From IMG/VR virus record IMGVR_UViG_3300042401_002002: a stretch of DNA of 17,740 nt; one strand, written 5' to 3'. The notes beneath the pieces were generated by a model. The model had not been told where the DNA came from. It did not search any database and worked only from the letters and a program-made list of their open reading frames with translations. Both the position numbers and the translations under genes were made by a program. Position 1 is the stretch's first letter. The number at the start of each line of letters is the position of its first letter. Source of the stretch: a virus. Taxonomy: Duplodnaviria; Heunggongvirae; Uroviricota; Caudoviricetes. Below, one piece after another: positions 320-17,740 of this stretch.

Positions 320-422
320 AAATATAAACCGTACAATGTTTGATTATATTGTACGGTTCAATAAACAATGTTAATCGAACATTGTTAAAAATAATTTGAA
401 AATAATAACAATGTTTTGTAAC
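320..422 (+). repeat. Twin-hairpin direct repeat, copy A
   Basis: About 100-nt near-identical copy at 2289-2394; stems 327-358 and 364-386. Confidence 0.9.
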
Positions 423-454
423 CTTATCAAAGTAATTTCGTTAAAGATAGAGTA
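417..454 (+). promoter_or_regulatory. Repeated promoter-like motif
   Basis: TGTAACCTT...TTTCGTTAAAGATAGAGTA upstream of ORF 515. Confidence 0.7.
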
Positions 455-484
455 TTAAGTTAAACAAACAAATCTAAACCTTTT

Positions 485-503
485 CTGTTACTAGGTTAAA
501 CAG
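485..503 (+). promoter_or_regulatory. 5'-leader hairpin (CTGTT/AACAG)
   Basis: TTTT-CTGTT-actaggtta-AACAG, ends 11 nt before ATG 515. Confidence 0.55.
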
Positions 504-514
504 TTTTAAAGTAT

Positions 515-697
515 ATGATTAAAGCATTAGTAAGTATCGTATTATTAGCACAATTAGTTTGTTTAGGTACTATGTTTTCTTCATGTACAATGAATGAAAC
601 ACACTATGGTAGTTCAACCCATAGTTACTACAAAAAAGACTTAAAAAAGGTTGTTTTGAGTAGTAACGTAAATAAATGTTCAAAAATTAGTAGATAA
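515..697 (+). CDS. Small putative lipoprotein
   Basis: Basic N-terminus, hydrophobic stretch, FSS-C24 lipobox-like motif. Confidence 0.6.
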   Translation: MIKALVSIVLLAQLVCLGTMFSSCTMNETHYGSSTHSYYKKDLKKVVLSSNVNKCSKISR

Positions 698-699
698 AA

Positions 700-738
700 C
701 AAAACTTTATTTGTAAGTTTGCGTTAAAGATAAAGTAT
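700..738 (+). promoter_or_regulatory. Repeated promoter-like motif (contains TAnnTTTG)
   Basis: CAAAACTTT...TAAGTTTGCGTTAAAGATAAAGTA. Confidence 0.65.
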
Positions 739-766
739 TCAATTAAACAATTAAATTATTAAGATT

Positions 767-1135
767 ATGGCAACTCGTAGCAGAATAGCATTTGAAGAAA
801 ATAATGAGATAAAATCAATTTATTGTCATTGGGACGGTTATTTGTCAAACAATGGTAAAATATTATTTGAAAACTATACAACACTTGACAAAGTTAAAGA
901 GTTAATTAGTTTAGGAGAGTTAAGTTCTTTAAAAGAAACAATCGAAGAAACTAAAGAAAATAGTTATCATATTAAACAAAATGAAAATATTAACATTGTT
1001 ACAAGTTCAGATGTAAAAGAATATTCAAAAGTATTTGAAGAGTATAATTATCTATTTAAAGACAATGTTTGGTATTTGGTTAATGATAATTTATCATTGG
1101 TTGCATTGAGTGAATATAGAAACTCCTCAAGATAG
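767..1135 (+). CDS. Conserved phage hypothetical protein (MATR..SIYCHWDGY), paralog of 7799
   Basis: AAGATT-ATG start; MATRS and H-x-DGY motifs shared with ORF 7799. Confidence 0.85.
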   Translation: MATRSRIAFEENNEIKSIYCHWDGYLSNNGKILFENYTTLDKVKELISLGELSSLKETIEETKENSYHIKQNENINIVTSSDVKEYSKVFEEYNYLFKDNVWYLVNDNLSLVALSEYRNSSR

Positions 1136-1170
1136 TAAAAGTACAATGTTTAAAAATAATAACAATGTTT

Positions 1171-1208
1171 TGAAACATTGTTTATAAAATTAACGTATAA
1201 GAAGTATA
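1171..1208 (+). promoter_or_regulatory. Repeated promoter-like motif
   Basis: TGAAACATT...TAACGTATAAGAAGTATA. Confidence 0.75.
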
Positions 1209-1219
1209 ACTAAACTTTT

Positions 1220-1235
1220 CAGTTGTTAGTAACTG
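1220..1235 (+). promoter_or_regulatory. 5'-leader hairpin, covariant copy (CAGTT/AACTG)
   Basis: TTTT-CAGTTG-ttag-TAACTG, ends 11 nt before ATG 1247. Confidence 0.6.
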
Positions 1236-1246
1236 TATTAAAGATT

Positions 1247-1477
1247 ATGACCACAGAAGAAAAAAATCAAGCATTAAATAATGCTTTAAGAAGTTTTGGA
1301 TATAGACAAGATTTATTTATCCATACAGTTGGTAAGGACTTATTTATTATTGCCAGTAAAAATGAAGTAGGTGGATTAAATACGTTTGGTTTGGCTTATA
1401 ACTACAAAGAAATGAATTTATTTCTTAAAGCTTATAATATAGGTTTTAATAACAATACATCACTAAAATTAATTTAA
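1247..1477 (+). CDS. Hypothetical protein (76 aa)
   Basis: Start moved from TTG 1223 to the in-frame AAGATT-ATG at 1247. Confidence 0.8.
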   Translation: MTTEEKNQALNNALRSFGYRQDLFIHTVGKDLFIIASKNEVGGLNTFGLAYNYKEMNLFLKAYNIGFNNNTSLKLI

Positions 1478-1491
1478 AAACAATTAACACA

Positions 1492-1632
1492 ATGTTACAG
1501 ATATTTATCAAATCAACAAACATTTTACCATTAAAAGAAATTGTTTGTCAAGTGTTAAAATCACAACCAAAATGTTCAAGCTATAACAATGCTATTAACA
1601 TTAATAGTAAACAAAATATTAACCGTAGATAA
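1492..1632 (+). CDS. Possible 46-aa hypothetical protein
   Basis: ATG-to-TAA ORF filling the gap between ORFs 1247 and 1641. Confidence 0.35.
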   Translation: MLQIFIKSTNILPLKEIVCQVLKSQPKCSSYNNAININSKQNINRR

Positions 1633-1640
1633 CCAAGATT

Positions 1641-2099
1641 ATGGAAACGACAATTTTAAAAAGAATATCGCCACAAAAATTAGCAGTAATGTTCCATGAC
1701 CATGCTGATAAAATCAATATTAGGTATTTCAATGCTTTGACTAAAGAAGAAATAAACGAACATAATGACCACAATGTTTTTACTTTTGAAGTTAAGGTAA
1801 GGCACAATGAAAATGAAAACCCTAATAAGCTTTTCAACAATGTTTTAAAAATAATCAATCAACCAAAAAGAAACATTGTTAAAACCAATAACAACAATGT
1901 TTTTAAACAAACTTCATTGTGTAAACAGGAAAGAATTAGTTTAGTTTCATTGCGTACTGATTTAATTAAAAAGATAGGTACAAATGATTTAAATGTTATT
2001 GATAGTTACATTATACCATTGTATAACGAACAAAGTAATTCAGTTTATTTTGTTGATGAAACAAGTTATTCAAGTGATGAAAGAGCTATTATTCTGTAA
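1641..2099 (+). CDS. Hypothetical protein
   Basis: AAGATT-ATG start, 152 aa; contains three AACAWTGTT sites. Confidence 0.75.
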   Translation: METTILKRISPQKLAVMFHDHADKINIRYFNALTKEEINEHNDHNVFTFEVKVRHNENENPNKLFNNVLKIINQPKRNIVKTNNNNVFKQTSLCKQERISLVSLRTDLIKKIGTNDLNVIDSYIIPLYNEQSNSVYFVDETSYSSDERAIIL

Positions 2100-2127
2100 C
2101 AACAATGTTAAAATAATAACAATGTTT

Positions 2128-2165
2128 TGCAACAATGTTTGTAATATTAACGTATAAGAAGTATA
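2128..2165 (+). promoter_or_regulatory. Repeated promoter-like motif
   Basis: TGCAACAAT...TAACGTATAAGAAGTATA. Confidence 0.75.
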
Positions 2166-2196
2166 AATAATTCAACCACAAACCAAATAAAGTAAA

Positions 2197-2289
2197 ATGA
2201 ATAAGTATAACAATATCCAGGATTTTGATGATTTGCCACATGGTAAAATAAAAGTAACTAAACCTAAAGTAAAGAAGTTTAAAGGTTAA
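2197..2289 (+). CDS. 30-aa peptide with basic tail (MNKYNNIQDFDDLPHGKIKVTKPKVKKFKG)
   Basis: Only ORF between motif 2128 and the twin hairpin at 2289; below the track's size cutoff. Confidence 0.6.
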   Translation: MNKYNNIQDFDDLPHGKIKVTKPKVKKFKG

Positions 2290-2394
2290 AATATAAACTT
2301 AACAATGTTTGATTATGTTGTTAAGTTCAAGAAACAATGTTAGTCGAACATTGTTTAAAAAAATAATTTGAAAATAATAACATTCTTTTGAAAC
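2289..2394 (+). repeat. Twin-hairpin direct repeat, copy B
   Basis: Matches 320-422; stems 2296-2327 and 2332-2356. Confidence 0.9.
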
Positions 2395-2462
2395 ATTGTT
2401 TGTGTTTACAAGGTACTATTAGTAGAAAAACTAAGGACTTTGTTTTAGAAAAATGTTAATAT

Positions 2463-2540
2463 ATGAATATTATTTATTATGTTGGAATACAAATATTGAT
2501 TGGTGTTTATTGTGGTAAAAAGTTAAGTGAAATAGTTTAA
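2463..2540 (+). CDS. 25-aa hydrophobic peptide (MNIIYYVGIQILIGVYCGKKLSEIV)
   Basis: ATG-to-TAA ORF directly upstream of ORF 2557. Confidence 0.45.
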   Translation: MNIIYYVGIQILIGVYCGKKLSEIV

Positions 2541-2556
2541 GTTAATTAAAGTAAAT

Positions 2557-2742
2557 ATGGAGTTAAAAGATTTAAGAAAATTGTACAAAGGTTTAATGGA
2601 ATACATTGATAGTTCAGAAGAGAACTTTAATAAACCTTTAAAAACAAATATAACTGATTATTTGGGTTTAAAGTTTGGTAATAATGATGCAGAACGTGAA
2701 GAAATTTTTACGAACTACATTATTGGTAGATTAGCTAGATAA
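2557..2742 (+). CDS. Hypothetical protein
   Basis: ORF track, 61 aa. Confidence 0.75.
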   Translation: MELKDLRKLYKGLMEYIDSSEENFNKPLKTNITDYLGLKFGNNDAEREEIFTNYIIGRLAR

Positions 2743-2996
2743 ATCCGTAGAAATAACAATGTTTTTGATTTTATTAAAATTTAAACAATGTTATTTTTTT
2801 GCATTTTAACATTGTTTTATAATGCAACAATGTTATTATACAATGTTTCAGAATTAACAATATGTTAATAATGTACCATTAAATACATATTATACTGATT
2901 ACTAAGGTATTAAAAAGTACAATAAATGTATGTTAAATTTAGTAAAAAATTCTTACATTTTATATGTTATATTTTAACAAAAAATACTAGTTTTAT

Positions 2997-5951: not shown

Positions 5952-5984
5952 CCTTTATTATTAAACCAACGTATAAATAGTATA
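5947..5984 (+). promoter_or_regulatory. Repeated promoter-like motif
   Basis: TGTAACCTTT...CCAACGTATAAATAGTATA. Confidence 0.8.
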
Positions 5985-5990
5985 TCTATT

Positions 5991-6221: not shown

Positions 6222-6225
6222 TACC

Positions 6226-6534
6226 ATGTCTATTCCAATTAACTCAAACATTGATTATAATAAATTGATTAATCAATTAGATTCTATTTCACTTAACAAA
6301 CTTAATACCAATATGAATACAATTCCAATGGCAGACCCAAGAGATTCATTTAACTATGAAGAATTTGAAAAAGAAATGTTGAATAATACAAATTCTTTTT
6401 TCAACAAAAGACAACCAAGTTATAATAAGTCTATCCACAAACCAACTAACCCAATTGATGTTTTAACTAGGAAATTAGAACGTGAGAGAAAACGTGCTAT
6501 TACTAGGGAACAGTATGGAGTTAATATTTATTAA
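6226..6534 (+). CDS. Hypothetical Asn-rich protein (102 aa)
   Basis: Start moved to the in-frame ATG 6226, 4 nt after the upstream stop. Confidence 0.7.
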   Translation: MSIPINSNIDYNKLINQLDSISLNKLNTNMNTIPMADPRDSFNYEEFEKEMLNNTNSFFNKRQPSYNKSIHKPTNPIDVLTRKLERERKRAITREQYGVNIY

Positions 6535-6536
6535 TT

Positions 6537-6737
6537 ATGAATAAACTAAGAGATTACTTTGTAAGATTATTAATTGATTTTTGTTGTGGAAAAGCATTGA
6601 AGTACCAACAAAGAACTGATTTGTTACATAATACAAAAGGTACTAACTATATTTATAGTATAGGTAGTAATGTTGTTCAACGTGATAAGTGGTTGAAAAG
6701 AATTTATTTGTTAGAAAAATTCATAGGTAAAGCTTAA
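6537..6737 (+). CDS. Hypothetical protein
   Basis: ORF track, 66 aa. Confidence 0.75.
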   Translation: MNKLRDYFVRLLIDFCCGKALKYQQRTDLLHNTKGTNYIYSIGSNVVQRDKWLKRIYLLEKFIGKA

Positions 6738-6741
6738 TAAC

Positions 6742-6882
6742 ATGATGCAGATAGATAAAAGGTTTAAAGAAGAGAAACTAAGAATATTTAAATGTAATGT
6801 TTCTATTAAAGAATTTACTAAACTTGAAAATGTTGAAAAACGATTTATATATGTAGATAATCTACATATATTCAGTAAATAA
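6742..6882 (+). CDS. 46-aa hypothetical protein (MMQIDKRFKEEKLRIF...)
   Basis: Fills the gap between ORF 6537 and the terminator at 6897. Confidence 0.6.
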   Translation: MMQIDKRFKEEKLRIFKCNVSIKEFTKLENVEKRFIYVDNLHIFSK

Positions 6883-6896
6883 CCAACTAACAATAT

Positions 6897-6936
6897 AAAA
6901 AACTTTCTTATTAATTTAGGAAAGTTTTTTTGTTTT
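6897..6936 (+). terminator. Intrinsic terminator
   Basis: AAAAAACTTTCTTA-ttaatt-TAGGAAAGTTTTTT followed by TGTTTT. Confidence 0.75.
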
Positions 6937-6949
6937 ATTGGCACATAAG

Positions 6950-6986
6950 TGTAACCTTTATGTTTTATCAGCGTATAAGTAGTATA
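6950..6986 (+). promoter_or_regulatory. Repeated promoter-like motif
   Basis: TGTAACCTTT...CAGCGTATAAGTAGTATA. Confidence 0.8.
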
Positions 6987-7002
6987 TTTAAACAACAAGA
7001 TT

Positions 7003-7350
7003 ATGGAAAACCAAACTAGAGTAATAAAGTTAAAAGAACTAAATTGTCAAGCCAAAAGTATGTTGGCTAGTGAATTTAATAAACTATTAGATGAGTGGGA
7101 TAGACAAAATTATATTAATTACAGGGAATTGTTATCGGAAAGTTATAGACACGTTTTAGATTATTATAATTTATCCGTATTCTTTCCACAACAAAAAATT
7201 TGGCAAAAACGTTTAAAAGATTCAGAAAAAGAGTTTAATAAACTTCTTAAACAACAAAATAAGATTTTAGTTAAACTAACTAAAATCAACAAACAAAGAA
7301 GGTTATTAAGAATTACTAAACCTAACAAACAACTTAAAATTAATTTCTAA
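7003..7350 (+). CDS. Hypothetical protein
   Basis: AAGATT-ATG start, 115 aa. Confidence 0.8.
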   Translation: MENQTRVIKLKELNCQAKSMLASEFNKLLDEWDRQNYINYRELLSESYRHVLDYYNLSVFFPQQKIWQKRLKDSEKEFNKLLKQQNKILVKLTKINKQRRLLRITKPNKQLKINF

Positions 7351-7354
7351 AATT

Positions 7355-7501
7355 ATGCCAAGAGAACCCTTGCCCTTAAAAAGAGAATACAAAGCTGATG
7401 TTACTATTAACATTGCAGATATTTTCAGAAACCCCGATATACAAAACGAGGTAATAAAAGAATGTAAAAAATTAAAAACTAATCGAACTAAAAGACTATG
7501 A
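7355..7501 (+). CDS. 48-aa hypothetical protein (MPREPLPLKREYKADV...)
   Basis: Starts 4 nt after the upstream stop; ATGA overlap with ORF 7498. Confidence 0.7.
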   Translation: MPREPLPLKREYKADVTINIADIFRNPDIQNEVIKECKKLKTNRTKRL

Positions 7502-7758
7502 AAACAGTAGAACAAAAAAGACTTGAAACAATTCAAAGTAAAATTGATAAACAAGTAAAAATCTTAACAGAACTTAAAAGTAAATCACTAACTAAGTTCT
7601 TAAGTCATAATGATATTGTTAAAATTAACAATAAATTTCAAGCTAGGTTATTGAATTACTTAGAAGAAGAAAAAAGAAATGTTAATTATTTGCAAGAACC
7701 AAATAAATTTAATAATATTGAAGAAAATATTAGATTTGTTGAAACCTTTGTAGATTAA
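7498..7758 (+). CDS. Hypothetical protein
   Basis: ORF track, 86 aa. Confidence 0.8.
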   Translation: MKTVEQKRLETIQSKIDKQVKILTELKSKSLTKFLSHNDIVKINNKFQARLLNYLEEEKRNVNYLQEPNKFNNIEENIRFVETFVD

Positions 7759-7777
7759 GTACGTAAAAGACTATATA
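7741..7777 (+). promoter_or_regulatory. Repeated promoter-like motif
   Basis: GAAACCTTT...GTACGTAAAAGACTATATA; overlaps the end of ORF 7498. Confidence 0.7.
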
Positions 7778-7798
7778 ACAATTAAACAAATTAAGATT

Positions 7799-8305
7799 AT
7801 GGCAACTAGAGCAACAATAAGTATTGAATTAGAAAACAAAAGCATTTTAACCGTTTTTTTATCACAAGATGGTTATCCTATGAATGATAGTAAAGATTTT
7901 GGTTGTGGTTTAACTTTATTAAAACATTATAATAAAGTAGATTTAGTGAATGAATTAATTTCACATGGAAATATTTATTCATTACAAGAAAAAATTGAAA
8001 AAGACCCAACAAAACCACATCGAATTGAATTAGAAAAAAGACAAAGAGATGTTTGTTTTTTCTTTAATAGAGATTATAAACAAGAAAATATTGAACCTAT
8101 AATTTTCTTTTCTGAAAAAGATTACAAAAAACGTAATGAAATGCAAGATTGGAATTATTTGTTTAAAAATAATGAATGGTATGTTTACTTAACTAAGTAT
8201 GATACTAATAACATAAAATATAAAAATAAGTTTGTTAAACTTAAAGAATTTATTGAAAATTCTGTAAAATATGTTGGTATAAATGAAACTGAAAACGTTT
8301 ATTAA
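7799..8305 (+). CDS. Conserved phage hypothetical protein (MATR..DGYP), paralog of 767
   Basis: MATRA, DGYP, ELISHGNIYSL and WNYLFKNNEWY align with ORF 767. Confidence 0.85.
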   Translation: MATRATISIELENKSILTVFLSQDGYPMNDSKDFGCGLTLLKHYNKVDLVNELISHGNIYSLQEKIEKDPTKPHRIELEKRQRDVCFFFNRDYKQENIEPIIFFSEKDYKKRNEMQDWNYLFKNNEWYVYLTKYDTNNIKYKNKFVKLKEFIENSVKYVGINETENVY

Positions 8306-8321
8306 ACGTATAAGAACTATA
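8284..8321 (+). promoter_or_regulatory. Repeated promoter-like motif
   Basis: TGAAACTG...TAAACGTATAAGAACTATA; overlaps the end of ORF 7799. Confidence 0.7.
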
Positions 8322-8338
8322 AATTAAAACTTAAGATT

Positions 8339-8485
8339 ATGGAAAATAAAATTAAAAAAGTATTAATTTGCAATAACTGTAAAGATATTTGGATAGCACC
8401 AATTAATAAATGTAAGTGTGGTTGTACTACGTTAACAGAAACGCATCTAAGTAATATAAATCTTGCACAAAATTTTAATAAATAA
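8339..8485 (+). CDS. 48-aa Cys-rich putative zinc-ribbon protein
   Basis: AAGATT-ATG start; CNNC...CKCGC; missed by the track. Confidence 0.75.
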   Translation: MENKIKKVLICNNCKDIWIAPINKCKCGCTTLTETHLSNINLAQNFNK

Positions 8486-8487
8486 TT

Positions 8488-8679
8488 ATGGAATACAACC
8501 AACAAATAACACATTGGTTAAGCAACTATGTTGAATTAGCTAACAAATTTAATGAAGAAGGAAACAAGGAACTTGCAGAATATTGGAAGGGTCAAGTATT
8601 TGGTACAGTCAAAACTGCTGAATTAATACTAGGCAAGGAAAATGTTGATTTTTCTTGGTATTTAAGACAATTGCCTTAA
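8488..8679 (+). CDS. Hypothetical protein
   Basis: ORF track, 63 aa. Confidence 0.8.
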   Translation: MEYNQQITHWLSNYVELANKFNEEGNKELAEYWKGQVFGTVKTAELILGKENVDFSWYLRQLP

Positions 8680-8689
8680 AATAAAAAAC

Positions 8690-8743
8690 CGAAAACAAAC
8701 AAAATATTTATCTAAATATTGAAACTTATTTTGTTTGTTTTCG
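8690..8743. repeat. 16-17 bp inverted repeat
   Basis: CGAAAACAAACAAAAT (8690-8705) / ATTTTGTTTGTTTTCG (8728-8743). Confidence 0.85.
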
Positions 8744-8758
8744 TTAAACAACATATAA
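8720..8758 (+). promoter_or_regulatory. Repeated promoter-like motif (variant)
   Basis: TGAAACTTA...TTTCGTTAAACAACATATA; 21-nt G-to-CG register. Confidence 0.55.
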
Positions 8759-8772
8759 AGCAAAACATAAAA

Positions 8773-9042
8773 ATGAAAAGAAAATATATAAACAATCCGA
8801 ATAGTAAAATAAAACCTTTTATTATTAACCCAGTAAAACAATCAATGATTAATAACGAAACAGTTATATTCAGCGAAACATTTGAAGATGCAATAAAAAC
8901 TTATGCAGAACAAAGAAACAAAACATTTACAGAAACTTGGTTTGATATTCAAGACAAACCTAGAAATGCTAATTTAAATAATAGCTTTCAAATAAGAAAT
9001 AGGCACGATGTAAAAGTGTTTGCTTTGTTGGACTTAAAATAA
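8773..9042 (+). CDS. Hypothetical protein (89 aa)
   Basis: Start moved from TTG 8719 to the in-frame ATG 8773 downstream of the motif. Confidence 0.75.
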   Translation: MKRKYINNPNSKIKPFIINPVKQSMINNETVIFSETFEDAIKTYAEQRNKTFTETWFDIQDKPRNANLNNSFQIRNRHDVKVFALLDLK

Positions 9043-9064
9043 ATTAAAAATATTTGCTTAAGTT

Positions 9065-9101
9065 TGTAACCTTATCAAATAATCAACGTATAATAACTAT
9101 A
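9065..9101 (+). promoter_or_regulatory. Repeated promoter-like motif
   Basis: TGTAACCTTATCAAATAATCAACGTATAATAACTATA. Confidence 0.8.
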
Positions 9102-9120
9102 AATTAACTAATAAACTTTT

Positions 9121-9136
9121 CTGTTGAATGTAACAG
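9121..9136 (+). promoter_or_regulatory. 5'-leader hairpin
   Basis: TTTT-CTGTTG-aatg-TAACAG, ends 12 nt before ATG 9149. Confidence 0.6.
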
Positions 9137-9148
9137 TACTCAAAGATT

Positions 9149-9607
9149 ATGGAAAAAATAGAAAAAAGAATTATCGGTTTTCACACAGGTAGAGGTGGTC
9201 GATTTTATAACGGTGGTCATACAGTTTGTATTGGGGAAACCAACATAAATAATTTTACCAATGATTTATTTGATAGATATGAAAATGAATTTGAATTACG
9301 TAAGTTAATTGGTAAAAGAAATAACCTAAATAATTTAGCTGATGAAAATATTGAACTACTAGCAGGAAAATTAAATTTTAATTTAGGTAAAAAAGTATGG
9401 TTTGATTGTAACAGTAACCCAGTTGGTTTAGATGTTAATAATGAAGGTATTGGCACTATTGATAATGACGGAATTTATGATACATTATCTTGTAAATACT
9501 TAGAAGACCTTTCGGATACTGAACTTAAATTAATATTAGAATTTCAAGGTTACATTGATAGTGAAATTATTAATTTTTGTAAAGAAAAATTAGAAATATT
9601 TGCTTAA
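9149..9607 (+). CDS. Phage hypothetical protein (FHTGRGGRFYNGGH motif)
   Basis: AAGATT-ATG start, 152 aa, Gly/Arg-rich N-terminal motif. Confidence 0.85.
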   Translation: MEKIEKRIIGFHTGRGGRFYNGGHTVCIGETNINNFTNDLFDRYENEFELRKLIGKRNNLNNLADENIELLAGKLNFNLGKKVWFDCNSNPVGLDVNNEGIGTIDNDGIYDTLSCKYLEDLSDTELKLILEFQGYIDSEIINFCKEKLEIFA

Positions 9608-9610
9608 GTT

Positions 9611-9647
9611 TGTAACCTTATTAAAGAACCAACGTATAAGAAGTATA
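9611..9647 (+). promoter_or_regulatory. Repeated promoter-like motif
   Basis: TGTAACCTTA...CCAACGTATAAGAAGTATA. Confidence 0.8.
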
Positions 9648-9666
9648 TCTAAACAATAAAAAGAAT

Positions 9667-9906
9667 ATGTTCAATTTATTCAAGAAGAAAAGAAACAAGC
9701 AAACTATATGGATAGCTTGTGATAACGACAATAATTATTATCTATTTGATAATAAACCAATAAAAGTTTATAAATCATGGGTTTGTACAGAAGGTACAAT
9801 GTTGTATATTAGTTCAACTATTTACATGATGTTAGTTAAACAATTCGATTTACCTATAATAACAAGTAGTAGTGAACCAATTGAAATTATTATTAAACAA
9901 ATCTAA
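9667..9906 (+). CDS. Phage hypothetical protein
   Basis: ORF track, 79 aa (WIACDNDNNYYLFDNKP). Confidence 0.8.
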   Translation: MFNLFKKKRNKQTIWIACDNDNNYYLFDNKPIKVYKSWVCTEGTMLYISSTIYMMLVKQFDLPIITSSSEPIEIIIKQI

Positions 9907-9908
9907 TT

Positions 9909-10190
9909 ATGCCTTACCCAAATTATACCTCCGAAATTTACCCTATCTTAGTTAATCTAACAGATAGTGAATTATTAATGATTAGTAATGATTCAATTAT
10001 TAGTGATAAAACGTTTACTAACATTGTAGGTTATCAAACATTGTATAACAACATTGTTAATTATCAAACCTCAAAAGGTTTTAGAACTGATACATATATT
10101 ATTAAATCAATGATTGGTAATTGTATTATTCATTATTGTGGCATGAAGTACTTAAATAATATAGCTAAAGAAGTTTTTGATAAAATTTAA
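9909..10190 (+). CDS. Hypothetical protein
   Basis: ORF track, 93 aa. Confidence 0.75.
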   Translation: MPYPNYTSEIYPILVNLTDSELLMISNDSIISDKTFTNIVGYQTLYNNIVNYQTSKGFRTDTYIIKSMIGNCIIHYCGMKYLNNIAKEVFDKI

Positions 10191-10199
10191 TATTACAAC

Positions 10200-10427
10200 A
10201 TGATAGTTACTGAACTAACAAATTCTCAATTGGTTTTCTTATCTAAAGAAATTAGTACAATGTCTAATTTAGATAAACCTAGTGAACATAAACGTAGTTT
10301 TTTATTGAATGAAATTTGGAAATTTTATAAGTTAATAAATTTCCATGATACATTTATCTCAATAAAACATACGGTAAAAGCAGAAATAATTCACAGAATT
10401 AATACAGATAAAATGAAACTTATTTAG
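10200..10427 (+). CDS. Hypothetical protein
   Basis: ORF track, 75 aa. Confidence 0.75.
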   Translation: MIVTELTNSQLVFLSKEISTMSNLDKPSEHKRSFLLNEIWKFYKLINFHDTFISIKHTVKAEIIHRINTDKMKLI

Positions 10428-10450
10428 TTTCTTAACGTAAAAGTAGTATA
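10414..10450 (+). promoter_or_regulatory. Repeated promoter-like motif
   Basis: TGAAACTTA...TAACGTAAAAGTAGTATA; overlaps the end of ORF 10200. Confidence 0.75.
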
Positions 10451-10468
10451 TTTAAACGACCAAAGATT

Positions 10469-10765
10469 ATGTCTTATATTTCAAAATTATTCATTAAGTC
10501 TTTAACATCAAAAGACAAAACTAAGCAAGAAAAAGTTGCTAATTTATTTGCAGTTAATCAAAATTGTGAATTTACACAAACAATTGCAATCAACAAACAA
10601 CCAAAGGATAAAAAATTTCCTGTACATTTATTTACGGTTACAATCTTTCAAAACAACATTAGTTTGTTGAAAACCAACGATGCAACTGAAAAAGAATATA
10701 ATGATATTTTGTTAGCTATTAAAACAAAATTTCCAAAAAATAATGTTATGTTTGTTAAGAATTAA
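10469..10765 (+). CDS. Hypothetical protein
   Basis: AAGATT-ATG start, 98 aa. Confidence 0.8.
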   Translation: MSYISKLFIKSLTSKDKTKQEKVANLFAVNQNCEFTQTIAINKQPKDKKFPVHLFTVTIFQNNISLLKTNDATEKEYNDILLAIKTKFPKNNVMFVKN

Positions 10766-10769
10766 AACC

Positions 10770-10958
10770 ATGACAGGAAGACGTTTATACCGTGAATTTG
10801 CTCAAAGTAAAGGCAAAGAAGCAAAAGAATTTGTATGTATCAAAGAAGAAATGTATAATATTGATACTCTAATCACTAAAGATAATAAAGGTAATGAAGA
10901 ACATACGACAATAAATTACAAAGAATTAGTTCATTGGATAATTAAAAATATTTTGTAA
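10770..10958 (+). CDS. Hypothetical protein (62 aa)
   Basis: Start moved to the in-frame ATG 10770; stop lies inside the next motif's GTAACC. Confidence 0.75.
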   Translation: MTGRRLYREFAQSKGKEAKEFVCIKEEMYNIDTLITKDNKGNEEHTTINYKELVHWIIKNIL

Positions 10959-10989
10959 CCTTATCAAATAACCAACGTATAAACCTATA
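10954..10989 (+). promoter_or_regulatory. Repeated promoter-like motif
   Basis: TGTAACCTTATCAAATAACCAACGTATAAACCTATA. Confidence 0.8.
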
Positions 10990-11005
10990 TAAACAAATAA
11001 AGATT

Positions 11006-11353
11006 ATGAAAATTTACATAATAACATTTATTAATGAGTTTGGTAATAAAACTACAATTTTTTCTAAAGGCTTTACAAAAGAAGAAGCTAAATTGAGGTT
11101 TATTGACGACTATGAATTACCCGAAAAAGTTAAAATAACTAAATGTATTTTAGCTAAAGATGGAGATTATGGTACTTTATCAGAAATGCCAAACCCATAC
11201 ATATTTAAGTTATTTAGTATATTGAAAAGAAATAATTGGATTGAACCAACTAAAAAAGAATTTCCTTCATATAGAGATAAAAATCCAAGTAAAAAGGTTT
11301 GGTTTGAAGATATTCATTTTATTTGGAGAAATTATGATATAAATTCTTTGTAA
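11006..11353 (+). CDS. Hypothetical protein
   Basis: AAGATT-ATG start, 115 aa. Confidence 0.8.
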   Translation: MKIYIITFINEFGNKTTIFSKGFTKEEAKLRFIDDYELPEKVKITKCILAKDGDYGTLSEMPNPYIFKLFSILKRNNWIEPTKKEFPSYRDKNPSKKVWFEDIHFIWRNYDINSL

Positions 11354-11356
11354 TTT

Positions 11357-11393
11357 TGCAACCTTATCAAATAACCAACGTATAAGTAGTATA
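11357..11393 (+). promoter_or_regulatory. Repeated promoter-like motif
   Basis: TGCAACCTTATCAAATAACCAACGTATAAGTAGTATA; 26 nt identical to the copy at 10954. Confidence 0.8.
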
Positions 11394-11413
11394 ATTAAAA
11401 ACTTAATCCTTTT

Positions 11414-11433
11414 CTGTTAACTAGGACAAACAG
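11414..11433 (+). promoter_or_regulatory. 5'-leader hairpin
   Basis: TTTT-CTGTT-aactaggaca-AACAG, ends 11 nt before ATG 11445. Confidence 0.55.
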
Positions 11434-11444
11434 TAATTAAAATT

Positions 11445-11921
11445 ATGTCAAACTACTGTGTTAATTACCTACAAATTATTGGAAATGATTCTAACGAAAT
11501 AGAAAGATTCCAAAACCTTATTACTAATAACAATGATAAAACCAATAATGGTTTATTGTTAGAAACAAAAACAACTAGTGAAGTTATCTTTGATGTTTAT
11601 ATCAATGATGACAATAGAATTGATTTCTTAACAAAATACACAACTAACATAGATATGTTCAAAGAATTGTCTGAATTATTTCCTACATTAACTATTAAGT
11701 TAGAATACATGGAACTAGGTTATGATGTTTTTGGTAAGGCTACATTTGAAAATGGTACTGTTAAACATAAACAATTAAGTGAAAGTGATTTTGAATTGAT
11801 TACAGAATGTTGCGATAGTGATGTTGATATTGAAACATACAAATATAAAGACTTTGAAAGCGAAAGTAGAGAAGAAGTTATAGAATATTTGTTTGAAGAC
11901 TTGTATAACGAATTTGTTTAA
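11445..11921 (+). CDS. DUF1281/YubB ferredoxin-like domain protein
   Basis: MSNYCVNYLQIIG N-terminus and LSELFPTLTIKLEYMELGYDVFG match my recollection of this family's pattern. Confidence 0.65.
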   Translation: MSNYCVNYLQIIGNDSNEIERFQNLITNNNDKTNNGLLLETKTTSEVIFDVYINDDNRIDFLTKYTTNIDMFKELSELFPTLTIKLEYMELGYDVFGKATFENGTVKHKQLSESDFELITECCDSDVDIETYKYKDFESESREEVIEYLFEDLYNEFV

Positions 11922-11942
11922 TTATTAAAATATAAGATTATC

Positions 11943-12404
11943 ATGTTAACCTTAGAAAAACCAAAACAGTTACTTTATTTGTGTTCAATTAAAGGTAAAG
12001 AAAACATTATCAGTAAGTTAAAACAAGATAATACTAGAATTAGTAACTATGTTTTAAAATCTTTAGAATGTCAATCAATTTTAGAAGATAGTTGTACATT
12101 AATAACCAACAAAGAATTATTAAAAGATTTGTTTAGTTATGTTATTGATGTTGCTCAAACAGCTAATGGTAAAATATATGATGCTGAAAATATTCATAGT
12201 TTTACTAAAAACGTACAACATAGTAATTTTGTTATCAATCAAATGAAACAAAATAAAGGTTTGTTTTATTATAACAAACTAAATGATGTTTATATTTATT
12301 TCTTACCAACTAGTTATTATTCACAAATAACACAAATGTTGGTTTGTACTAAAGATTTAGAAGATTACAAAGCGATTAATAACGATTTAAGCTTGTTGTT
12401 CTAA
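11943..12404 (+). CDS. Hypothetical protein, C-terminus INNDLSLLF
   Basis: ORF track, 153 aa. Confidence 0.8.
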   Translation: MLTLEKPKQLLYLCSIKGKENIISKLKQDNTRISNYVLKSLECQSILEDSCTLITNKELLKDLFSYVIDVAQTANGKIYDAENIHSFTKNVQHSNFVINQMKQNKGLFYYNKLNDVYIYFLPTSYYSQITQMLVCTKDLEDYKAINNDLSLLF

Positions 12405-12489
12405 TTAATACAAATGAAAACAATATTTATATTGTTGATTATATAGATAAAATTAAGTAACTTTAGACTATTTAAGTTTAAACAACTAA

Positions 12490-12717
12490 ATGGAAACTAA
12501 CTTAATCTTTAAAGAAAATATCACTAATAACAATATTTTAACTAAACTCAATAAAAAAACACAAGCTATTCTAGTAATAGATAATGACAGTTTTATTGAG
12601 TTTCTATCCAACGGAACTTTTTTTGTTCCAACTAATGAAAATGTAGGTATCAATTGCACCAACATTAAAGATGCAATTTATGAGATTGAACGAACTAAAA
12701 ATAAATTATTGGTTTAA
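12490..12717 (+). CDS. Hypothetical protein
   Basis: ORF track, 75 aa. Confidence 0.75.
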   Translation: METNLIFKENITNNNILTKLNKKTQAILVIDNDSFIEFLSNGTFFVPTNENVGINCTNIKDAIYEIERTKNKLLV

Positions 12718-12755
12718 TGCAACCTTTTATAAGGTTTACACGTTAAAGATGTATA
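12718..12755 (+). promoter_or_regulatory. Repeated promoter-like motif
   Basis: TGCAACCTTTTATAAGGTTTACACGTTAAAGATGTATA. Confidence 0.8.
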
Positions 12756-12776
12756 ACAATTAAACAAATTAAGATT

Positions 12777-13196
12777 ATGTCAACAGGAAGAAAAAGATTA
12801 AATGATGCGTTAAAGAAAGGTGAATTTTTTAACGCATTTAAAAATATAACGTATGATTATGATTCAAAATATATTCATATTATTGATAAAAATAAATTAA
12901 ATTTACTTTATGAATATGTTATAATTAATGCTGAAATATTAAATGGTAAAATGGATAGTATTGTAACGTATGGAACAGGTGCAACACATGAACAAAATAT
13001 TATTGATAAAGAAATAAATAATTTATTCATTGAAACAGTTAAAAAAGGAAAATGTTTATTCTTTTTAATGCCAAATAATGAATATATTGGTTTAGTACCT
13101 TTAGAAGAAAAATCTGAACTTCTTCAACCTAGTTTTACAGTTGAAGACTTTGAAAAATTTCAAGAAATTAATAAAGATTTAAGTTTATTATATTAA
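12777..13196 (+). CDS. Hypothetical protein, C-terminus INKDLSLLY
   Basis: AAGATT-ATG start, 139 aa. Confidence 0.8.
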   Translation: MSTGRKRLNDALKKGEFFNAFKNITYDYDSKYIHIIDKNKLNLLYEYVIINAEILNGKMDSIVTYGTGATHEQNIIDKEINNLFIETVKKGKCLFFLMPNNEYIGLVPLEEKSELLQPSFTVEDFEKFQEINKDLSLLY

Positions 13197-13201
13197 AAAT
13201 T

Positions 13202-13456
13202 ATGTTAACCGATAAGATTTTAAAACAAGCTAAAGTAATTAAGCAAAAAGAAAAATGTCCTTTTGTTCTTATTATAAAAGAAAAAATTGTGCCTTTATAT
13301 AATATGGAACAAAAACATTTTGTTGAACAAAATTTCATTAAAAGACAAAACTTAAGGTTGTTTGTATCTTTGTTAAATCATGTTTTAAAAACAAAAGAAA
13401 CTGATTATCAAAAACTTAAACAACTTTATGTTGAACAAGTAGAAATAATTGACTAA
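13202..13456 (+). CDS. Hypothetical protein
   Basis: ORF track, 84 aa. Confidence 0.75.
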   Translation: MLTDKILKQAKVIKQKEKCPFVLIIKEKIVPLYNMEQKHFVEQNFIKRQNLRLFVSLLNHVLKTKETDYQKLKQLYVEQVEIID

Positions 13457-13460
13457 TAAG

Positions 13461-13498
13461 TGTAACATTTTATAAGGTTTTCACGTTAAAGAATATAT
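13461..13498 (+). promoter_or_regulatory. Repeated promoter-like motif (last copy in window)
   Basis: TGTAACATTTTATAAGGTTTTCACGTTAAAGAATATAT. Confidence 0.75.
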
Positions 13499-13520
13499 AA
13501 CAATTAAACAAATTAAGATT

Positions 13521-13841
13521 ATGGAAATTTTATCAACAACTTACTTAGACCACAAAAGAAAAAGTAAGTTAAAAATTAAAGGTATTATCAATCCACTTGA
13601 AAGAAGTGTAAGAATTATTCAATCAACAGGAAATGTTATTGTAGAAGGTATTATATATTTTAAAGATGTTGATGAATGGAATAGTTTTACTTTATTAGAT
13701 GGTAGAGTAGTGGATTGTCATTTTGATAGTTATGAAAACAATACTATTTCATTCAGTGTATATGAAGTTATTGACAATGTTAGACAAGACAATAAATCTA
13801 TTCATATTCAACTTAAGTTAGAAACTATTAAATTAACGTAA
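13521..13841 (+). CDS. Hypothetical protein
   Basis: AAGATT-ATG start, 106 aa. Confidence 0.8.
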   Translation: MEILSTTYLDHKRKSKLKIKGIINPLERSVRIIQSTGNVIVEGIIYFKDVDEWNSFTLLDGRVVDCHFDSYENNTISFSVYEVIDNVRQDNKSIHIQLKLETIKLT

Positions 13842-13845
13842 GTCT

Positions 13846-14118
13846 ATGGCACGTTTAACAGTTACAAAAGTAACCTCTTTGATTTTGCATACAGAGGATT
13901 ATAATAATGCAGGTCTTAAACAATCTGATATTATGGAGCGTATTAAAAAAGAAATTGGGGGTGTGTGTATGGTTGAAGAATTTCCTATTAATTCAAATAT
14001 ACAAGTTCATTTTGATACTAATAATGAAAGTGTTATTAATATGGTATTTTATAAAATAAATATATTGCTTGAGTTTATGTTAATGGAACATAAAAAATTA
14101 AATAAATTTAAAAACTAA
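13846..14118 (+). CDS. Hypothetical protein
   Basis: ORF track, 90 aa. Confidence 0.75.
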   Translation: MARLTVTKVTSLILHTEDYNNAGLKQSDIMERIKKEIGGVCMVEEFPINSNIQVHFDTNNESVINMVFYKINILLEFMLMEHKKLNKFKN

Positions 14119-14152
14119 AAGTTATAGTTTATCTTTAAAACTGATTATAAGT

Positions 14153-14848
14153 ATGTTTCATTTCCTTAAAAATATGTTTTCTTCTTCAGAAGATAGAAAT
14201 AAATTCAACAAAAATATGTCAAACAATGTTATTACAGAACTAACAAAGTCTGGTAAATTTAAAACACCTAATGAATTTTTTATCTTAGGTGATACAATCA
14301 CAGACCCTTTAACTAACAATCTTTACAATACAGGTGTTACACAAGAAAAATCAACTGCAATGTCAGAAATTGCTAAAAATCTTTCATTAAATATAGTCGA
14401 TTTACCTTTAAGTAAAAATGTTGCAGAAAAACAAGACCGTTGTACTTTTGAATACAATGCTCAATACAAAGCTTTGAGAAACATAACAATGTTGTTCAAG
14501 AATGTTTTAAAAGAAAAACTATCCATTAACCAACATAAGACAGTTGAACTTTGTATCAAAGCAGTAAGAAAGGATAGTGATTTTATTAAAAATCGTTTAA
14601 CCGAAGGTACTTATGATAAAACAAAAGGTACTGATTACGATGAAGAAGTATTAACATTGTTTGCTTCATTAAAATCTTTGAGGGTTATCAGAAAAACATT
14701 GTTTTATATTCAAGAAAACAAATCTGATGAACTAAGTAAAAAAAGAATTGTTTCAAAATTAATTGATATTCTAAACAATGAAATCAATTCAAGACAAACA
14801 ATGTTGGATTCTTTGAAAAAAGATTTAAACATTGTTGTAAATAAGTAA
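14153..14848 (+). CDS. Hypothetical protein (231 aa, helical)
   Basis: ORF track; contains six AACAWTGTT sites. Confidence 0.85.
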   Translation: MFHFLKNMFSSSEDRNKFNKNMSNNVITELTKSGKFKTPNEFFILGDTITDPLTNNLYNTGVTQEKSTAMSEIAKNLSLNIVDLPLSKNVAEKQDRCTFEYNAQYKALRNITMLFKNVLKEKLSINQHKTVELCIKAVRKDSDFIKNRLTEGTYDKTKGTDYDEEVLTLFASLKSLRVIRKTLFYIQENKSDELSKKRIVSKLIDILNNEINSRQTMLDSLKKDLNIVVNK

Positions 14849-14881
14849 ATTAATTAGTAAGTTTGTTAAAAATATAATATT

Positions 14882-15109
14882 ATGAGTTTGTTTAAGTTAT
14901 TTATTCCAAAAGATAAAGGACAAGTTGTTACAGAACTTGAAAGTTGGACTGTTAAATGGGAAGTTGCAACATCACTTAGATGGGGACAATCTCAAGTTTA
15001 TCATAAAGTCTTTGTAAAAGAAAATGAAGCTAAAGAATTTAAAAAACAACTTGAAAACTCTGCATCTTTTATAAAGACTCCGATTAATACTGAGATTGTA
15101 CGTAATTAA
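14882..15109 (+). CDS. Phage hypothetical protein
   Basis: ORF track, 75 aa. Confidence 0.8.
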   Translation: MSLFKLFIPKDKGQVVTELESWTVKWEVATSLRWGQSQVYHKVFVKENEAKEFKKQLENSASFIKTPINTEIVRN

Positions 15110-15121
15110 TTTGTAAATGTT

Positions 15122-15466
15122 ATGGAAATTGTAACTAAAATAGAAGGTGTTCATTCGTTTGGTAGAAGAAACATAAACAACAATGTTTGTGAATATCAAT
15201 TACATAGTCCTAGAATGTGTGAAAATGATATTTTAATTTATTACTATCCACAAGAAAATGTAATAGGTATCTATCAAGTAACTGAAGAACTAAGTTATTT
15301 CAATAAAGATGATTTGCAACTATGTACAGGTTTAATGAATAGAATAAATCCAGGTTCATTAGCTGATTGTATAGCAAACATTGAAAGACAAAATTTTGAA
15401 TTAGCTAAAAAGTTAGTTGGAATACTTAATAAAATGTTTGAAAAATATAGTTTAGTTGCTTGTTAA
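15122..15466 (+). CDS. Hypothetical protein
   Basis: ORF track, 114 aa. Confidence 0.8.
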   Translation: MEIVTKIEGVHSFGRRNINNNVCEYQLHSPRMCENDILIYYYPQENVIGIYQVTEELSYFNKDDLQLCTGLMNRINPGSLADCIANIERQNFELAKKLVGILNKMFEKYSLVAC

Positions 15467-15467
15467 T

Positions 15468-15527
15468 ATGGAATTGTTAATAACAATTATAATAACATTC
15501 TTAATCTTCATGTTATTTGCATTTTAA
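15468..15527 (+). CDS. 19-aa hydrophobic peptide (MELLITIIITFLIFMLFAF)
   Basis: ATG 1 nt after the upstream stop; almost entirely hydrophobic. Confidence 0.45.
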   Translation: MELLITIIITFLIFMLFAF

Positions 15528-15625
15528 ACAATGTTAGAGAGAAGACAACATTGTTTGTGAACAATGTTCAGTTAAGTAAAGAAAGCTGTAAGAAGGTGTG
15601 TTAAAATAGAAAATTAAATAAGTCA

Positions 15626-15850
15626 ATGAACAACGAAATAACAGAATTATTTAAATCAATATCAGATAATGATTTAAAATTAGTAATGCAAGAAATGAAA
15701 GATAGCGAATCAACAGGTTATATTGGTGATTTAGTTAGAGATTATGCTAGAAAGACTGTTCTAATAACAGGTAATGATGTTTCAACCGACCTTTACATGG
15801 TTCAAATAAATTTATTCAAGGAAGCTGCTTTTAGGTGGTTAAATAACTAA
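15626..15850 (+). CDS. Hypothetical protein
   Basis: ORF track, 74 aa. Confidence 0.8.
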   Translation: MNNEITELFKSISDNDLKLVMQEMKDSESTGYIGDLVRDYARKTVLITGNDVSTDLYMVQINLFKEAAFRWLNN

Positions 15851-15861
15851 AAAATAATATT

Positions 15862-16053
15862 ATGTTAACAGGAATTATAATTTATCAAATCATTGCAGGT
15901 TTAATTATGTGTGGGTTCTTTTTGGAGAATGCTGATGCAGAAACACCTATGAAAACTATTGTTACTTGGTTGTTTATCAACTTAATAGTAGGTTGTATAA
16001 CTTTACCAATGCAGATTGGTTCTATCTTAGCAAGAATAAACAATAACAAATAA
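15862..16053 (+). CDS. Small membrane protein (two hydrophobic segments)
   Basis: 63 aa with two hydrophobic stretches. Confidence 0.75.
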   Translation: MLTGIIIYQIIAGLIMCGFFLENADAETPMKTIVTWLFINLIVGCITLPMQIGSILARINNNK

Positions 16054-16057
16054 GAAT

Positions 16058-16279
16058 ATGCGATATACTATTAAGTACAAAGTTGATAATTGGTTGTTTG
16101 ATACATACTTTCAATACGAAACATTGTTAGATGCCTTTATTGATTTAAAACAATGTTCAGAAATATCTGAAAACAAGTTCTACGTGATAGACAATGTTAA
16201 AGATAAGGAGGTAAAACCGACATTGTTTTATAACATTGTTGTTGAAATAAGAATGTTTATTAATAAGTTAGTTAAGTAA
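16058..16279 (+). CDS. Hypothetical protein
   Basis: ORF track, 73 aa; three exact and two near AACAWTGTT sites. Confidence 0.7.
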   Translation: MRYTIKYKVDNWLFDTYFQYETLLDAFIDLKQCSEISENKFYVIDNVKDKEVKPTLFYNIVVEIRMFINKLVK

Positions 16280-16286
16280 TAAGAAT

Positions 16287-16757
16287 ATGCCAATCAAACT
16301 AAAAGAATATAAAATAAAACCTTATGAAGGTGATGGAATTGTAAAGAGACATGGACACTTATCTGTTGATGGGTTATTTAAACATTTTAAAGATAAATCA
16401 GTAAAACGTGTTTTAAATGGTAATATTAATCATGTTCCTATAACATTTTTACAATGGAATGTTTATTATTTAAATTACAAAAAGAACAACAATGTTTGTA
16501 AATGTGGTATTTGCGGTGCTGAAGCAACACATGTTTCTGTTGTTAGTTTTGCACATTCAACTACAAAAAAATCATTTAGGTTCTTTACTATTAAGGATAA
16601 AAAAGAAATGATTTTCAATATTGACCATATCATACCTGTATCAAAAGGTGGTTCAAATGATATTGATAATTTACAAATAACTTGTAAAGATTGTAATTCA
16701 TTAAAGTCGAATAAAATTATAATTAAAAGAGAAAGTGTTTTAAAAGCAACCATATAA
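16287..16757 (+). CDS. HNH endonuclease
   Basis: CGIC ... NIDHIIPVSKGGSNDIDNLQITCKDCNSLKSN is a canonical zinc-binding HNH motif. Confidence 0.9.
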   Translation: MPIKLKEYKIKPYEGDGIVKRHGHLSVDGLFKHFKDKSVKRVLNGNINHVPITFLQWNVYYLNYKKNNNVCKCGICGAEATHVSVVSFAHSTTKKSFRFFTIKDKKEMIFNIDHIIPVSKGGSNDIDNLQITCKDCNSLKSNKIIIKRESVLKATI

Positions 16758-16841
16758 TATAGAACTTTATGTTAGTTTTATGTAAATTTAACATATTTAT
16801 TTTATAAATCAAACTATTTATAATAAATAACTAATCGTTTA

Positions 16842-17740
16842 ATGTACGTTACTGAAAAACACATAATCAACAAATCACATCGCTTCTATGAAGAGATTGA
16901 TTCTCTGTGTTTTAAAAGTAAAAATTTGTACAATAAAGCTCTTTATACTGTAAGACAAGAATTTATTAATACTTCAAAATTAAAACAAGAAGGTTTGTTA
17001 GATAACGCTAATTATTTTAATTATAATACTATTAATAGACAATTTGTGGACAGTAAAGATGTTGATTATTACAATTTACCTTGTAAAGTTAGTAATCAAA
17101 CTCTTATGTTGGTTGATAAAAACTTTAAATCTTTCTTTGCTCTTTGTAAAAAGTATAAAAGCAACAAATATGATTTAACAGGCAGACCTAAGCTACCTAA
17201 CTACTTGCACAAAACCAAAGGTCGTTACGTAGTAACGTATGAACTTGGTGCTATATCTAAAAGAGAATTAAAGAAAGGTTTTATCAAACTAAGTGGAACT
17301 AACATTGAAGTACCTGTCATTAACAAATACAATGGTGTTTTAAAACAGGTACGTTTAGTACCCATGTCAAATAAAAAATATAAAATTGAAGTTGTTTATG
17401 ATGTAGAAGAAAAGAACATGAACTTAAACAAAGATAATATAATAAGTATTGATTACGGAGTTAACAATTTAATGACCATAACATCAAATGTAGAAGGCTT
17501 TCAGCCTCGTATAATTAAAGGTGGTCATGTTAAGTCTATTAATCAATTTTATAATAAAGTCAAAAGTGAGTTGCAGTCGCAACTACCAAACCACCCTACT
17601 AAAAAGGATAACCAAGGTAAACCTCAAATCTTACAGAACTCTAATAAGATTAACACTTTAACACATAAGCGTAACTGTAAGATTGAACATGAGTTTCATG
17701 AGTACACAAACAAAATATTGCAACTGTGTTTACAGTATAA
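16842..17740 (+). CDS. tnpB: TnpB-family RNA-guided endonuclease, 3'-truncated by window edge
   Basis: Open frame of about 299 codons: MYVTEKHII..CFKSKNLYNKALYTVRQEF, NFKSFF, RPKLPNY, QVRLVP, and RuvC-I SIDYGVNNL with the Asp intact. Confidence 0.92.
   Translation, partial: MYVTEKHIINKSHRFYEEIDSLCFKSKNLYNKALYTVRQEFINTSKLKQEGLLDNANYFNYNTINRQFVDSKDVDYYNLPCKVSNQTLMLVDKNFKSFFALCKKYKSNKYDLTGRPKLPNYLHKTKGRYVVTYELGAISKRELKKGFIKLSGTNIEVPVINKYNGVLKQVRLVPMSNKKYKIEVVYDVEEKNMNLNKDNIISIDYGVNNLMTITSNVEGFQPRIIKGGHVKSINQFYNKVKSELQSQLPNHPTKKDNQGKPQILQNSNKINTLTHKRNCKIEHEFHEYTNKILQLCLQY

Follow-up and report, generated by a model that had tools for sequence, protein, structure and literature searches.

Binding sites of regulators are usually sought between genes, but in a 17,740-nucleotide stretch of viral DNA a 9-bp word, AACAWTGTT, is kept within conserved genes. 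The stretch, referred to here as the window, belongs to IMG/VR record IMGVR_UViG_3300042401_002002, assigned to the Caudoviricetes. It is 24% GC and packed with small plus-strand open reading frames (ORFs), most of which were assigned to no family in Pfam and PHROG profile searches. The locus in question, designated patch 2, comprises 14 exact copies of the word from 14222 to 16488. It raises the question of whether the word is maintained at the DNA level within coding sequence and, if so, what a protein bound to it would do there.

Distribution and selection of the AACAWTGTT word

Exact matches to AACAWTGTT numbered 35 in the window, compared to 1.26 expected and a maximum of 6 in dinucleotide shuffles. 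Twenty lie in the 2.5 kb of a companion cluster, patch 1 (364..2834), where they are mostly intergenic, and 14 lie in the 2.3 kb of patch 2. The patch edges are sharp, and the 11.4 kb between them, from 2835 to 14221, holds one exact site. The word is a perfect 4-1-4 palindrome of 9 bp with no conserved flanks. Its centre was A or T at 35 of 35 sites, never G or C, and showed no strand bias (A:T of 8:6 in patch 2 and 21:14 overall). Exact copies matched one-mismatch variants of all kinds in number (35 and 36 in the window), which indicated that the exact word is the selected unit. Helical phasing of the sites was tested and none was found. Taken together, exact palindromy, a centre restricted to W and the absence of strand bias suggest that the word is read by a dimeric protein on double-stranded DNA.

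The sequence-only reading had listed 14 sites in patch 2, eleven of them wholly inside ORFs and in all three frames. Each coordinate proved to be an exact match, and placement on the ORFs, all of plus strand, confirmed the eleven; the remaining three (15527, 15547 and 15560) are intergenic. The ORF at 14153..14848 contains six sites, at 14222..14230 (AACAATGTT, frame 0, read as NNV), 14485..14493 (AACAATGTT, frame 2, ITML), 14653..14661 (AACATTGTT, frame 2, LTLF), 14695..14703 (AACATTGTT, frame 2, KTLF), 14797..14805 (AACAATGTT, frame 2, QTML) and 14828..14836 (AACATTGTT, frame 0, NIV). The ORF at 15122-15466 contains one (15179..15187, AACAATGTT, frame 0, NNV), as does the HNH endonuclease gene at 16287-16757 (16488..16496, AACAATGTT, frame 0, NNV). 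Three sites, one per frame, lie in the plus-strand ORF at 16058..16279 and read as ETLL (16120..16128, AACATTGTT, frame 2), KQCS (16149..16157, AACAATGTT, frame 1) and NIV(V) (16232..16240, AACATTGTT, frame 0), just as had been claimed. Overall, five intragenic sites are in frame 0, five in frame 2 and one in frame 1.

Enrichment of the word persisted under the codon-preserving shuffles that had been proposed as a check. Eleven sites were observed in the patch-2 ORFs, compared to 2.2-2.4 expected when synonymous codons were shuffled within or across these ORFs, and none of 1000-2000 trials reached the observed number (maximum 8). Residue shuffles of the same ORFs gave an expectation of 0.2 sites. 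Among all 4-N-4 words in the patch-2 ORFs, AACANTGTT was the strongest outlier (z = 7.1), and the next-ranked words were shifted versions of it. A codon-context test was also applied, in which the peptide positions able to encode the word were identified and the number realised was compared to the number predicted from codon usage. The word was realised at 11 of 13 compatible positions in the patch-2 ORFs versus 1.85 expected (P = 4.5e-9). ORFs of the intervening 9 kb behaved neutrally, with 1 of 8 compatible positions realised versus 0.78 expected. Compatible peptides were themselves six times denser in the patch-2 ORFs than in this middle block (5.5 versus 0.9 per kb), which indicated that selection has affected residues and not just codons. 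As a background control, the complete 340-kb phage G004 (25% GC) contained 11 sites, all dispersed.

DNA-level selection was thus shown to keep the sites, overriding codon usage and shaping even the amino-acid sequence. The earlier claim of frame-independent selection for a protein-binding word was strongly supported by the codon shuffles, the 4-N-4 outlier and the codon-context test. Patch 2 clearly exemplifies dual-coding DNA in nature, with proteins enriched in compatible peptides, and the comparison of realised with possible positions is reusable for any motif.

Recurrence of the pattern in a marine relative

The syntenic comparison was made with one relative, a 1761-bp marine contig designated L002. 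Among GenBank phages, patch 2 had no match at the DNA or protein level. IMG/VR yielded no relative when queried with ORF 14153, the alignment of its family or ORF 15626, and one metagenome scan for relatives returned L002 only. The patch-2 genes are real; in all four genes shared with L002, divergence was highest at third codon positions. L002 carries 10 sites, of which the intragenic ones number 6, compared to 1.23 by shuffle (0 of 2000 trials), and the word was realised at 6 of 6 compatible peptide positions (P = 1.2e-5). L002 is an independent repeat of the patch-2 pattern.

When intragenic sites were aligned, three of eight in the window were identical in L002 and five were lost. The identical sites are those at 14828, 16149 and 16232 (L002 positions 488, 1633 and 1716, respectively), and the site at 14485 is among those not kept. 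L002 has three sites of its own elsewhere in the same two genes. One of its exact sites, at 1703, occupies the homologous place of a one-mismatch site in the window (16219..16227, GACATTGTT, read as PTLF). The product of ORF 16058 is 72% identical in amino acid sequence to its L002 homologue, which also carries three sites. Conservation of exact positions was therefore not significant by itself (p = 0.14). The mixture of shared and relocated sites indicated that the density per gene is selected, via turnover, and not the exact position.

The distribution of sites among genes was the same in both lineages. Genes of the 14153 and 16058 types carry sites, and the two conserved plus-strand genes between them, 15626-15850 and 15862-16053, contain neither a site nor a site-compatible peptide in either lineage. 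These two genes are flanked upstream by the intergenic sites, designated the hub (15527..15568), and downstream by the sites of ORF 16058. In the L002 hub, the sites are retained and the spacers between them have diverged.

Whole-gene content differs between the two sequences. ORFs 14882 and 15122 (window 14882-15466) are absent from L002, which has an extra ORF of 120 amino acids (1174-1536) between the homologues of 15862 and 16058. A junction, GTAAGTTTGTT.AAAAT, after the stop of ORF 14153 is common to both.

Candidate operators and the possible role of the sites

The hub contains the sites 15527, 15547 and 15560, and the pair 15547/15560 forms an inverted repeat whose 9-bp arms enclose a 4-nt loop. 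Its micro-architecture resembles that of 2784-2850 in patch 1, such that each patch has a non-coding hub of similar layout: TTTGCATTTTAA-site, site, then ACAATGTT(T)CAG. Read from the sequence, an extended -10-like element, TGTTAAAAT, lies on the plus strand at 15597..15606, 19 nt 5' of the start of ORF 15626, and L002 has TGTTAAACT at the matching position. We infer a promoter before ORF 15626, relative to which the hub sites would centre near -49, -62 and -82. No CGTA-type box follows the intragenic sites that would mark internal promoters.

In patch 1 the word has fixed places at four promoter copies, over their -35/spacer as well as just 5' of a -35-like TTG.AAC, and these fixed positions indicated operator behaviour. 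The small ORFs 1223 and 2557 lie behind promoters that carry the word. Repeats of this promoter type, identified by regular expression, number 22, all of them on the plus strand, and the last starts at 13463. The patch-2 genes, which have no promoter of the 22-copy type of their own, therefore lie downstream of a long run of promoters of the same direction. Patch 2 does begin after the last promoter copy, as had been claimed (14222 versus 13463). The further claim that the patches bracket the promoter-dense block held only roughly, for about five promoter copies lie within patch 1.

We consider it plausible, at somewhat less than an even chance, that patch 2 consists of operators plus auxiliary or roadblock sites that control a conserved early module. 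AACAWTGTT would be the word recognised in duplex DNA by a sequence-specific dimeric protein with two-fold symmetry, and patch 2 would be a selected site cluster over the early-gene module, with six sites in ORF 14153, three in the hub, three in ORF 16058 and two singles. The bound protein would act on transcription: from the hub sites, as primary operators, it would control the putative promoter before ORF 15626, and the gene-body sites would be auxiliary operators, like lac O2 and gal OI, with the flanking gene-body clusters raising local occupancy or looping to the hub. The gene-body sites may also, or instead, be elongation roadblocks that would halt read-through from the 22 upstream promoters of the same strand once the regulator accumulates. 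A parallel would exist in patch 1, where copies of the word overlap promoters at the -35/spacer. The case may help to explain how blocks of fast-evolving accessory genes are timed or insulated in giant phages.

Two known kinds of system resemble this arrangement in part. In lac (O2 in lacZ), gal (OI in galE) and lambda (OL-OR), palindromic operators of dimers or tetramers lie within coding sequence, some way from the primary operator but within looping distance of it, and the oligomeric repressor can occupy two sites together. Patch 2 is similar in that the hub lies upstream of ORF 15626, and the clusters in ORFs 14153 and 16058 surround 15626-15862 in an arrangement kept in L002, the promoter being predicted. 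It differs in having far more sites, 14 in 2.3 kb, and no phasing. The second kind is found in Cluster A mycobacteriophages, in which repressors of the L5 gp71 type bind operators and stoperators (PMC9283540, PMC6550527). Stoperators are asymmetric 13-mers bound by a monomer, orientation-dependent and distributed genome-wide in short intergenic spaces of temperate phages (PMC9283540), and they are proposed to stop both initiation and elongation (PMC9283540, PMC6550527). As with stoperators, one short multi-copy word is present both at promoters (four copies in patch 1) and inside transcribed regions (11 gene-body sites in patch 2). Unlike stoperators, the word in the window is a perfect 9-bp 4-1-4 palindrome without conserved flanks, and it has no orientation, its sole asymmetric letter being the centre (A:T of 8:6 and 21:14, as above). 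Its sites are gathered in two sharp patches, with 11 of 14 patch-2 sites inside ORFs and in three frames, and the genome that carries them is that of a T4-like, apparently lytic jumbo phage. No gene for an HTH (helix-turn-helix) repressor of the L5 gp71 type was found in the window.

Several observations weigh against the operator and roadblock proposal. Positional conservation in L002 alone was not significant (3 of 8 versus a background of 17%, p = 0.14). The hub sites lie upstream of the predicted -10 element and not over it, which would suit an activator as well. The phage looks lytic, and stoperator-type repressors that silence a genome are known from temperate phages. Lastly, Pfam and PHROG searches of the window yielded no ORF with a recognisable DNA-binding domain.

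The protein that binds AACAWTGTT is probably encoded by the phage. A place directly 3' of the hub and 86% conservation made ORF 15626 a candidate binder. It gained no support: its family is nameless in Pfam, PHROGs and the PDB, its AF2 model was poor (pLDDT 61), and a 46%-identical member in G004, which has only background sites genome-wide, has neither a site cluster nor another palindrome upstream. The product of ORF 15626-15850 is a helical protein of 74 amino acids. Its family comprises about 140 clusters at 50% identity, mostly stand-alone proteins of about 75 amino acids, with some fused to longer proteins; the G004 member comes from a jumbo phage whose complete genome of 339.6 kb has direct terminal repeats (L244). 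ORF 5991 was rejected as a bZIP-like binder of the 4-1-4 palindrome, as its Pfam match fell short of the threshold and its product, an acidic protein, lacks a basic region. ORF 14153 was likewise not supported as a DNA binder of the Dps/ferritin type, since its fold matches were only generic four-helix bundles (E about 0.06). The 9-bp word nonetheless provides a bait with an inbuilt negative control, the S-centred variant, and thus a handle for finding a new phage DNA-binding protein.

The sequence-only reading had favoured a spreading or segregation locus, or a looping boundary, over an operator. We consider it unlikely that the patches form an architectural boundary, in which a protein bound at both would bridge them and loop out or insulate the 11.4-kb block of promoter cassettes. 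Action at a distance has precedents in lambda CI between OL and OR and in proteins of the ParB/KorB type, and O_B, the KorB site of RK2, is a 13-bp palindrome with about a dozen dispersed copies. The two patches are alike in size and density, they flank 11.4 kb with one site, and each contains a non-coding hub of similar layout. These points are offset by the lack of helical phasing, by the five promoter copies inside patch 1, and by the site pattern in L002, which tracks individual genes and not a boundary. A distant relative, G001, also argues against pairing of two patches. This 69.9-kb viral contig (26% GC) has the same promoter type on the minus strand (11 matches), and its TnpB is its only protein that resembles a window protein. 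It contains only six sites, at 69474-69694 (L024 14280-14500), just upstream of the first promoter and less than 350 bp from the contig end, and no second patch was found in its 69.9 kb.

KorB is a ParB-family CTPase clamp that silences promoters at long range from O_B sites up to kilobases away, with no need of a classical operator position (PMC11790492). The word resembles O_B in being palindromic and in its presence both at promoters and at sites away from them. Compared to the centromere-like sites of ParB-parS and KorB-O_B, which are palindromes of 13-16 bp in few copies, it is a palindrome of 9 bp with 34 copies in two patches. ParB-family proteins combine an HTH with a CTPase and usually have a ParA partner, both encoded near the sites. 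In contrast to those systems, no ParB- or KorB-like protein was found among the window ORFs in Pfam and PHROG searches, and nothing indicated a partition function. Nothing supports the segregation reading, and preference for any such locus over an operator was unsupported given the lack of a partition gene in the window, the lack of phasing, the single patch of G001 and the operator behaviour of patch 1. A stronger version, in which the patches would be the pairing boundaries of a viral 'insulated domain' clamped by a dedicated phage protein on about 34 palindromes, is more doubtful still. If true, such a domain would isolate about 20 promoter cassettes, the hyperplastic block, topologically and transcriptionally from the rest of the 309-kb genome.

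It is improbable that patch 2 is a packaging or replication recognition region, pac/cos-like or iteron-like, that overlaps genes by chance. The idea draws on an unrelated lineage in which 7-12 irregular copies of the word occupy a non-coding hub of roughly 1 kb directly 5' of a Terminase_2 small-terminase gene and TerL, and on G001, where the single patch is confined to the final 350 bp of the contig. The unrelated lineage has no genes in common with this phage, however, and seems to infect other hosts. Recognition sites of small terminases lie beside or within terS, an arrangement seen only in the unrelated lineage, and the window has no terminase or replication gene. The cumulative GC skew of the window has no turning point, and the word in patch 1 is at fixed promoter positions. 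Packaging in T4-type phages is by headful and uses no pac site, which also counts against this explanation. The terminase-hub lineage consists of IMG/VR contigs L015, L076, L109, L112, L115 and L122 (33-43% GC). On one side of their hub are divergent small early-like genes, on the other terS and then TerL, and the region could serve as a pac/cos site, origin or switch that uses AACAWTGTT.

Binding of a host protein, such as a nucleoid protein or global regulator, for recruitment or for soaking it up, would account for clusters of the 9-mer in several unrelated viral contigs of 27-43% GC and for the failure to find a phage binder in the window. We hold this to be improbable as well. The contigs with clusters look like phages of different hosts, and when bacterial genomes were scanned for triplets of the site, the matches were scattered and heterogeneous, many with the regular spacing of repeat arrays. 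A literature search on the word returned primers and eukaryotic sites only, and no published regulator.

A signal at the RNA level in plus-strand transcripts, either hairpins between neighbouring sites or a target of an RNA-binding protein or nuclease, is very improbable. Every gene is on the plus strand, and pairs of sites 13-14 nt apart, such as 15547/15560, can form 9-bp stems. Most patch-2 sites are isolated, however, and a 4-1-4 palindrome cannot self-fold. The centre has no strand bias (A:T of 8:6), and an RNA motif needs no strict palindromy. No Rfam family matched the window, and no tRNA was found in it. The PeSL (promoter-early/stem-loop) cassettes of T4-type hyperplastic regions, reportedly described by Arbiol et al. 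in 2010, are similar in that short repeated regulatory motifs lie beside early promoters in a T4-like hyperplastic region and in that paired sites can form stem-loops. PeSL motifs differ in being intergenic cassette junctions, which leaves isolated sites selected inside conserved genes unexplained.

That composition, codon bias or an amino-acid repeat produced the pattern, as might be suspected in an AT-rich genome whose frame-0 sites encode N-N/I-V, has next to no probability and is refuted by the shuffles, the 4-N-4 outlier, the codon-context test and the G004 background.

Neighbouring genes and other clusters of the word

The protein encoded by ORF 14153 has a variable or disordered N-terminal region of 90 amino acids and a conserved C-terminal domain predicted to be a four-helix bundle. 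Across nine homologues, the C-terminal 135 residues are highly conserved, and the AF2 model had pLDDT above 90 over residues 91-227. Fold searches gave no significant match that names the four-helix domain.

Between ORF 15122 and the hub lies a wholly hydrophobic micro-ORF of 19 codons (MELLITIIITFLIFMLFAF, 15468-15527), which begins one base past the ORF 15122 stop and runs as far as the first hub site. In the equivalent place L002 (544-600) has a similar ORF of 18 codons. The micro-ORF may be a gene for a tiny membrane peptide. Mobile elements directly follow patch 2: the HNH endonuclease gene and then an IS605-type OrfB/TnpB gene that runs past the window end (16287-17738).

Elsewhere in the window, 767-1135 and 7799-8305 encode phrog_1987 paralogues that have their first codons and an upstream leader (ATTAAGATTATGGCAAC) in common; phrog_1987 is also present in KVP40-like vibriophages and cyanomyophages. 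The ORF at 11445-11921 matched DUF1281_C, the ferredoxin-like domain of Api92-like proteins (E = 5e-10). A separate cluster of the word was observed in L001, a viral contig of 40% GC that was unrelated to the window by blastn or tblastx, in which six copies of AACAATGTT, all with centre A, lie in 82 bp (6484-6565).

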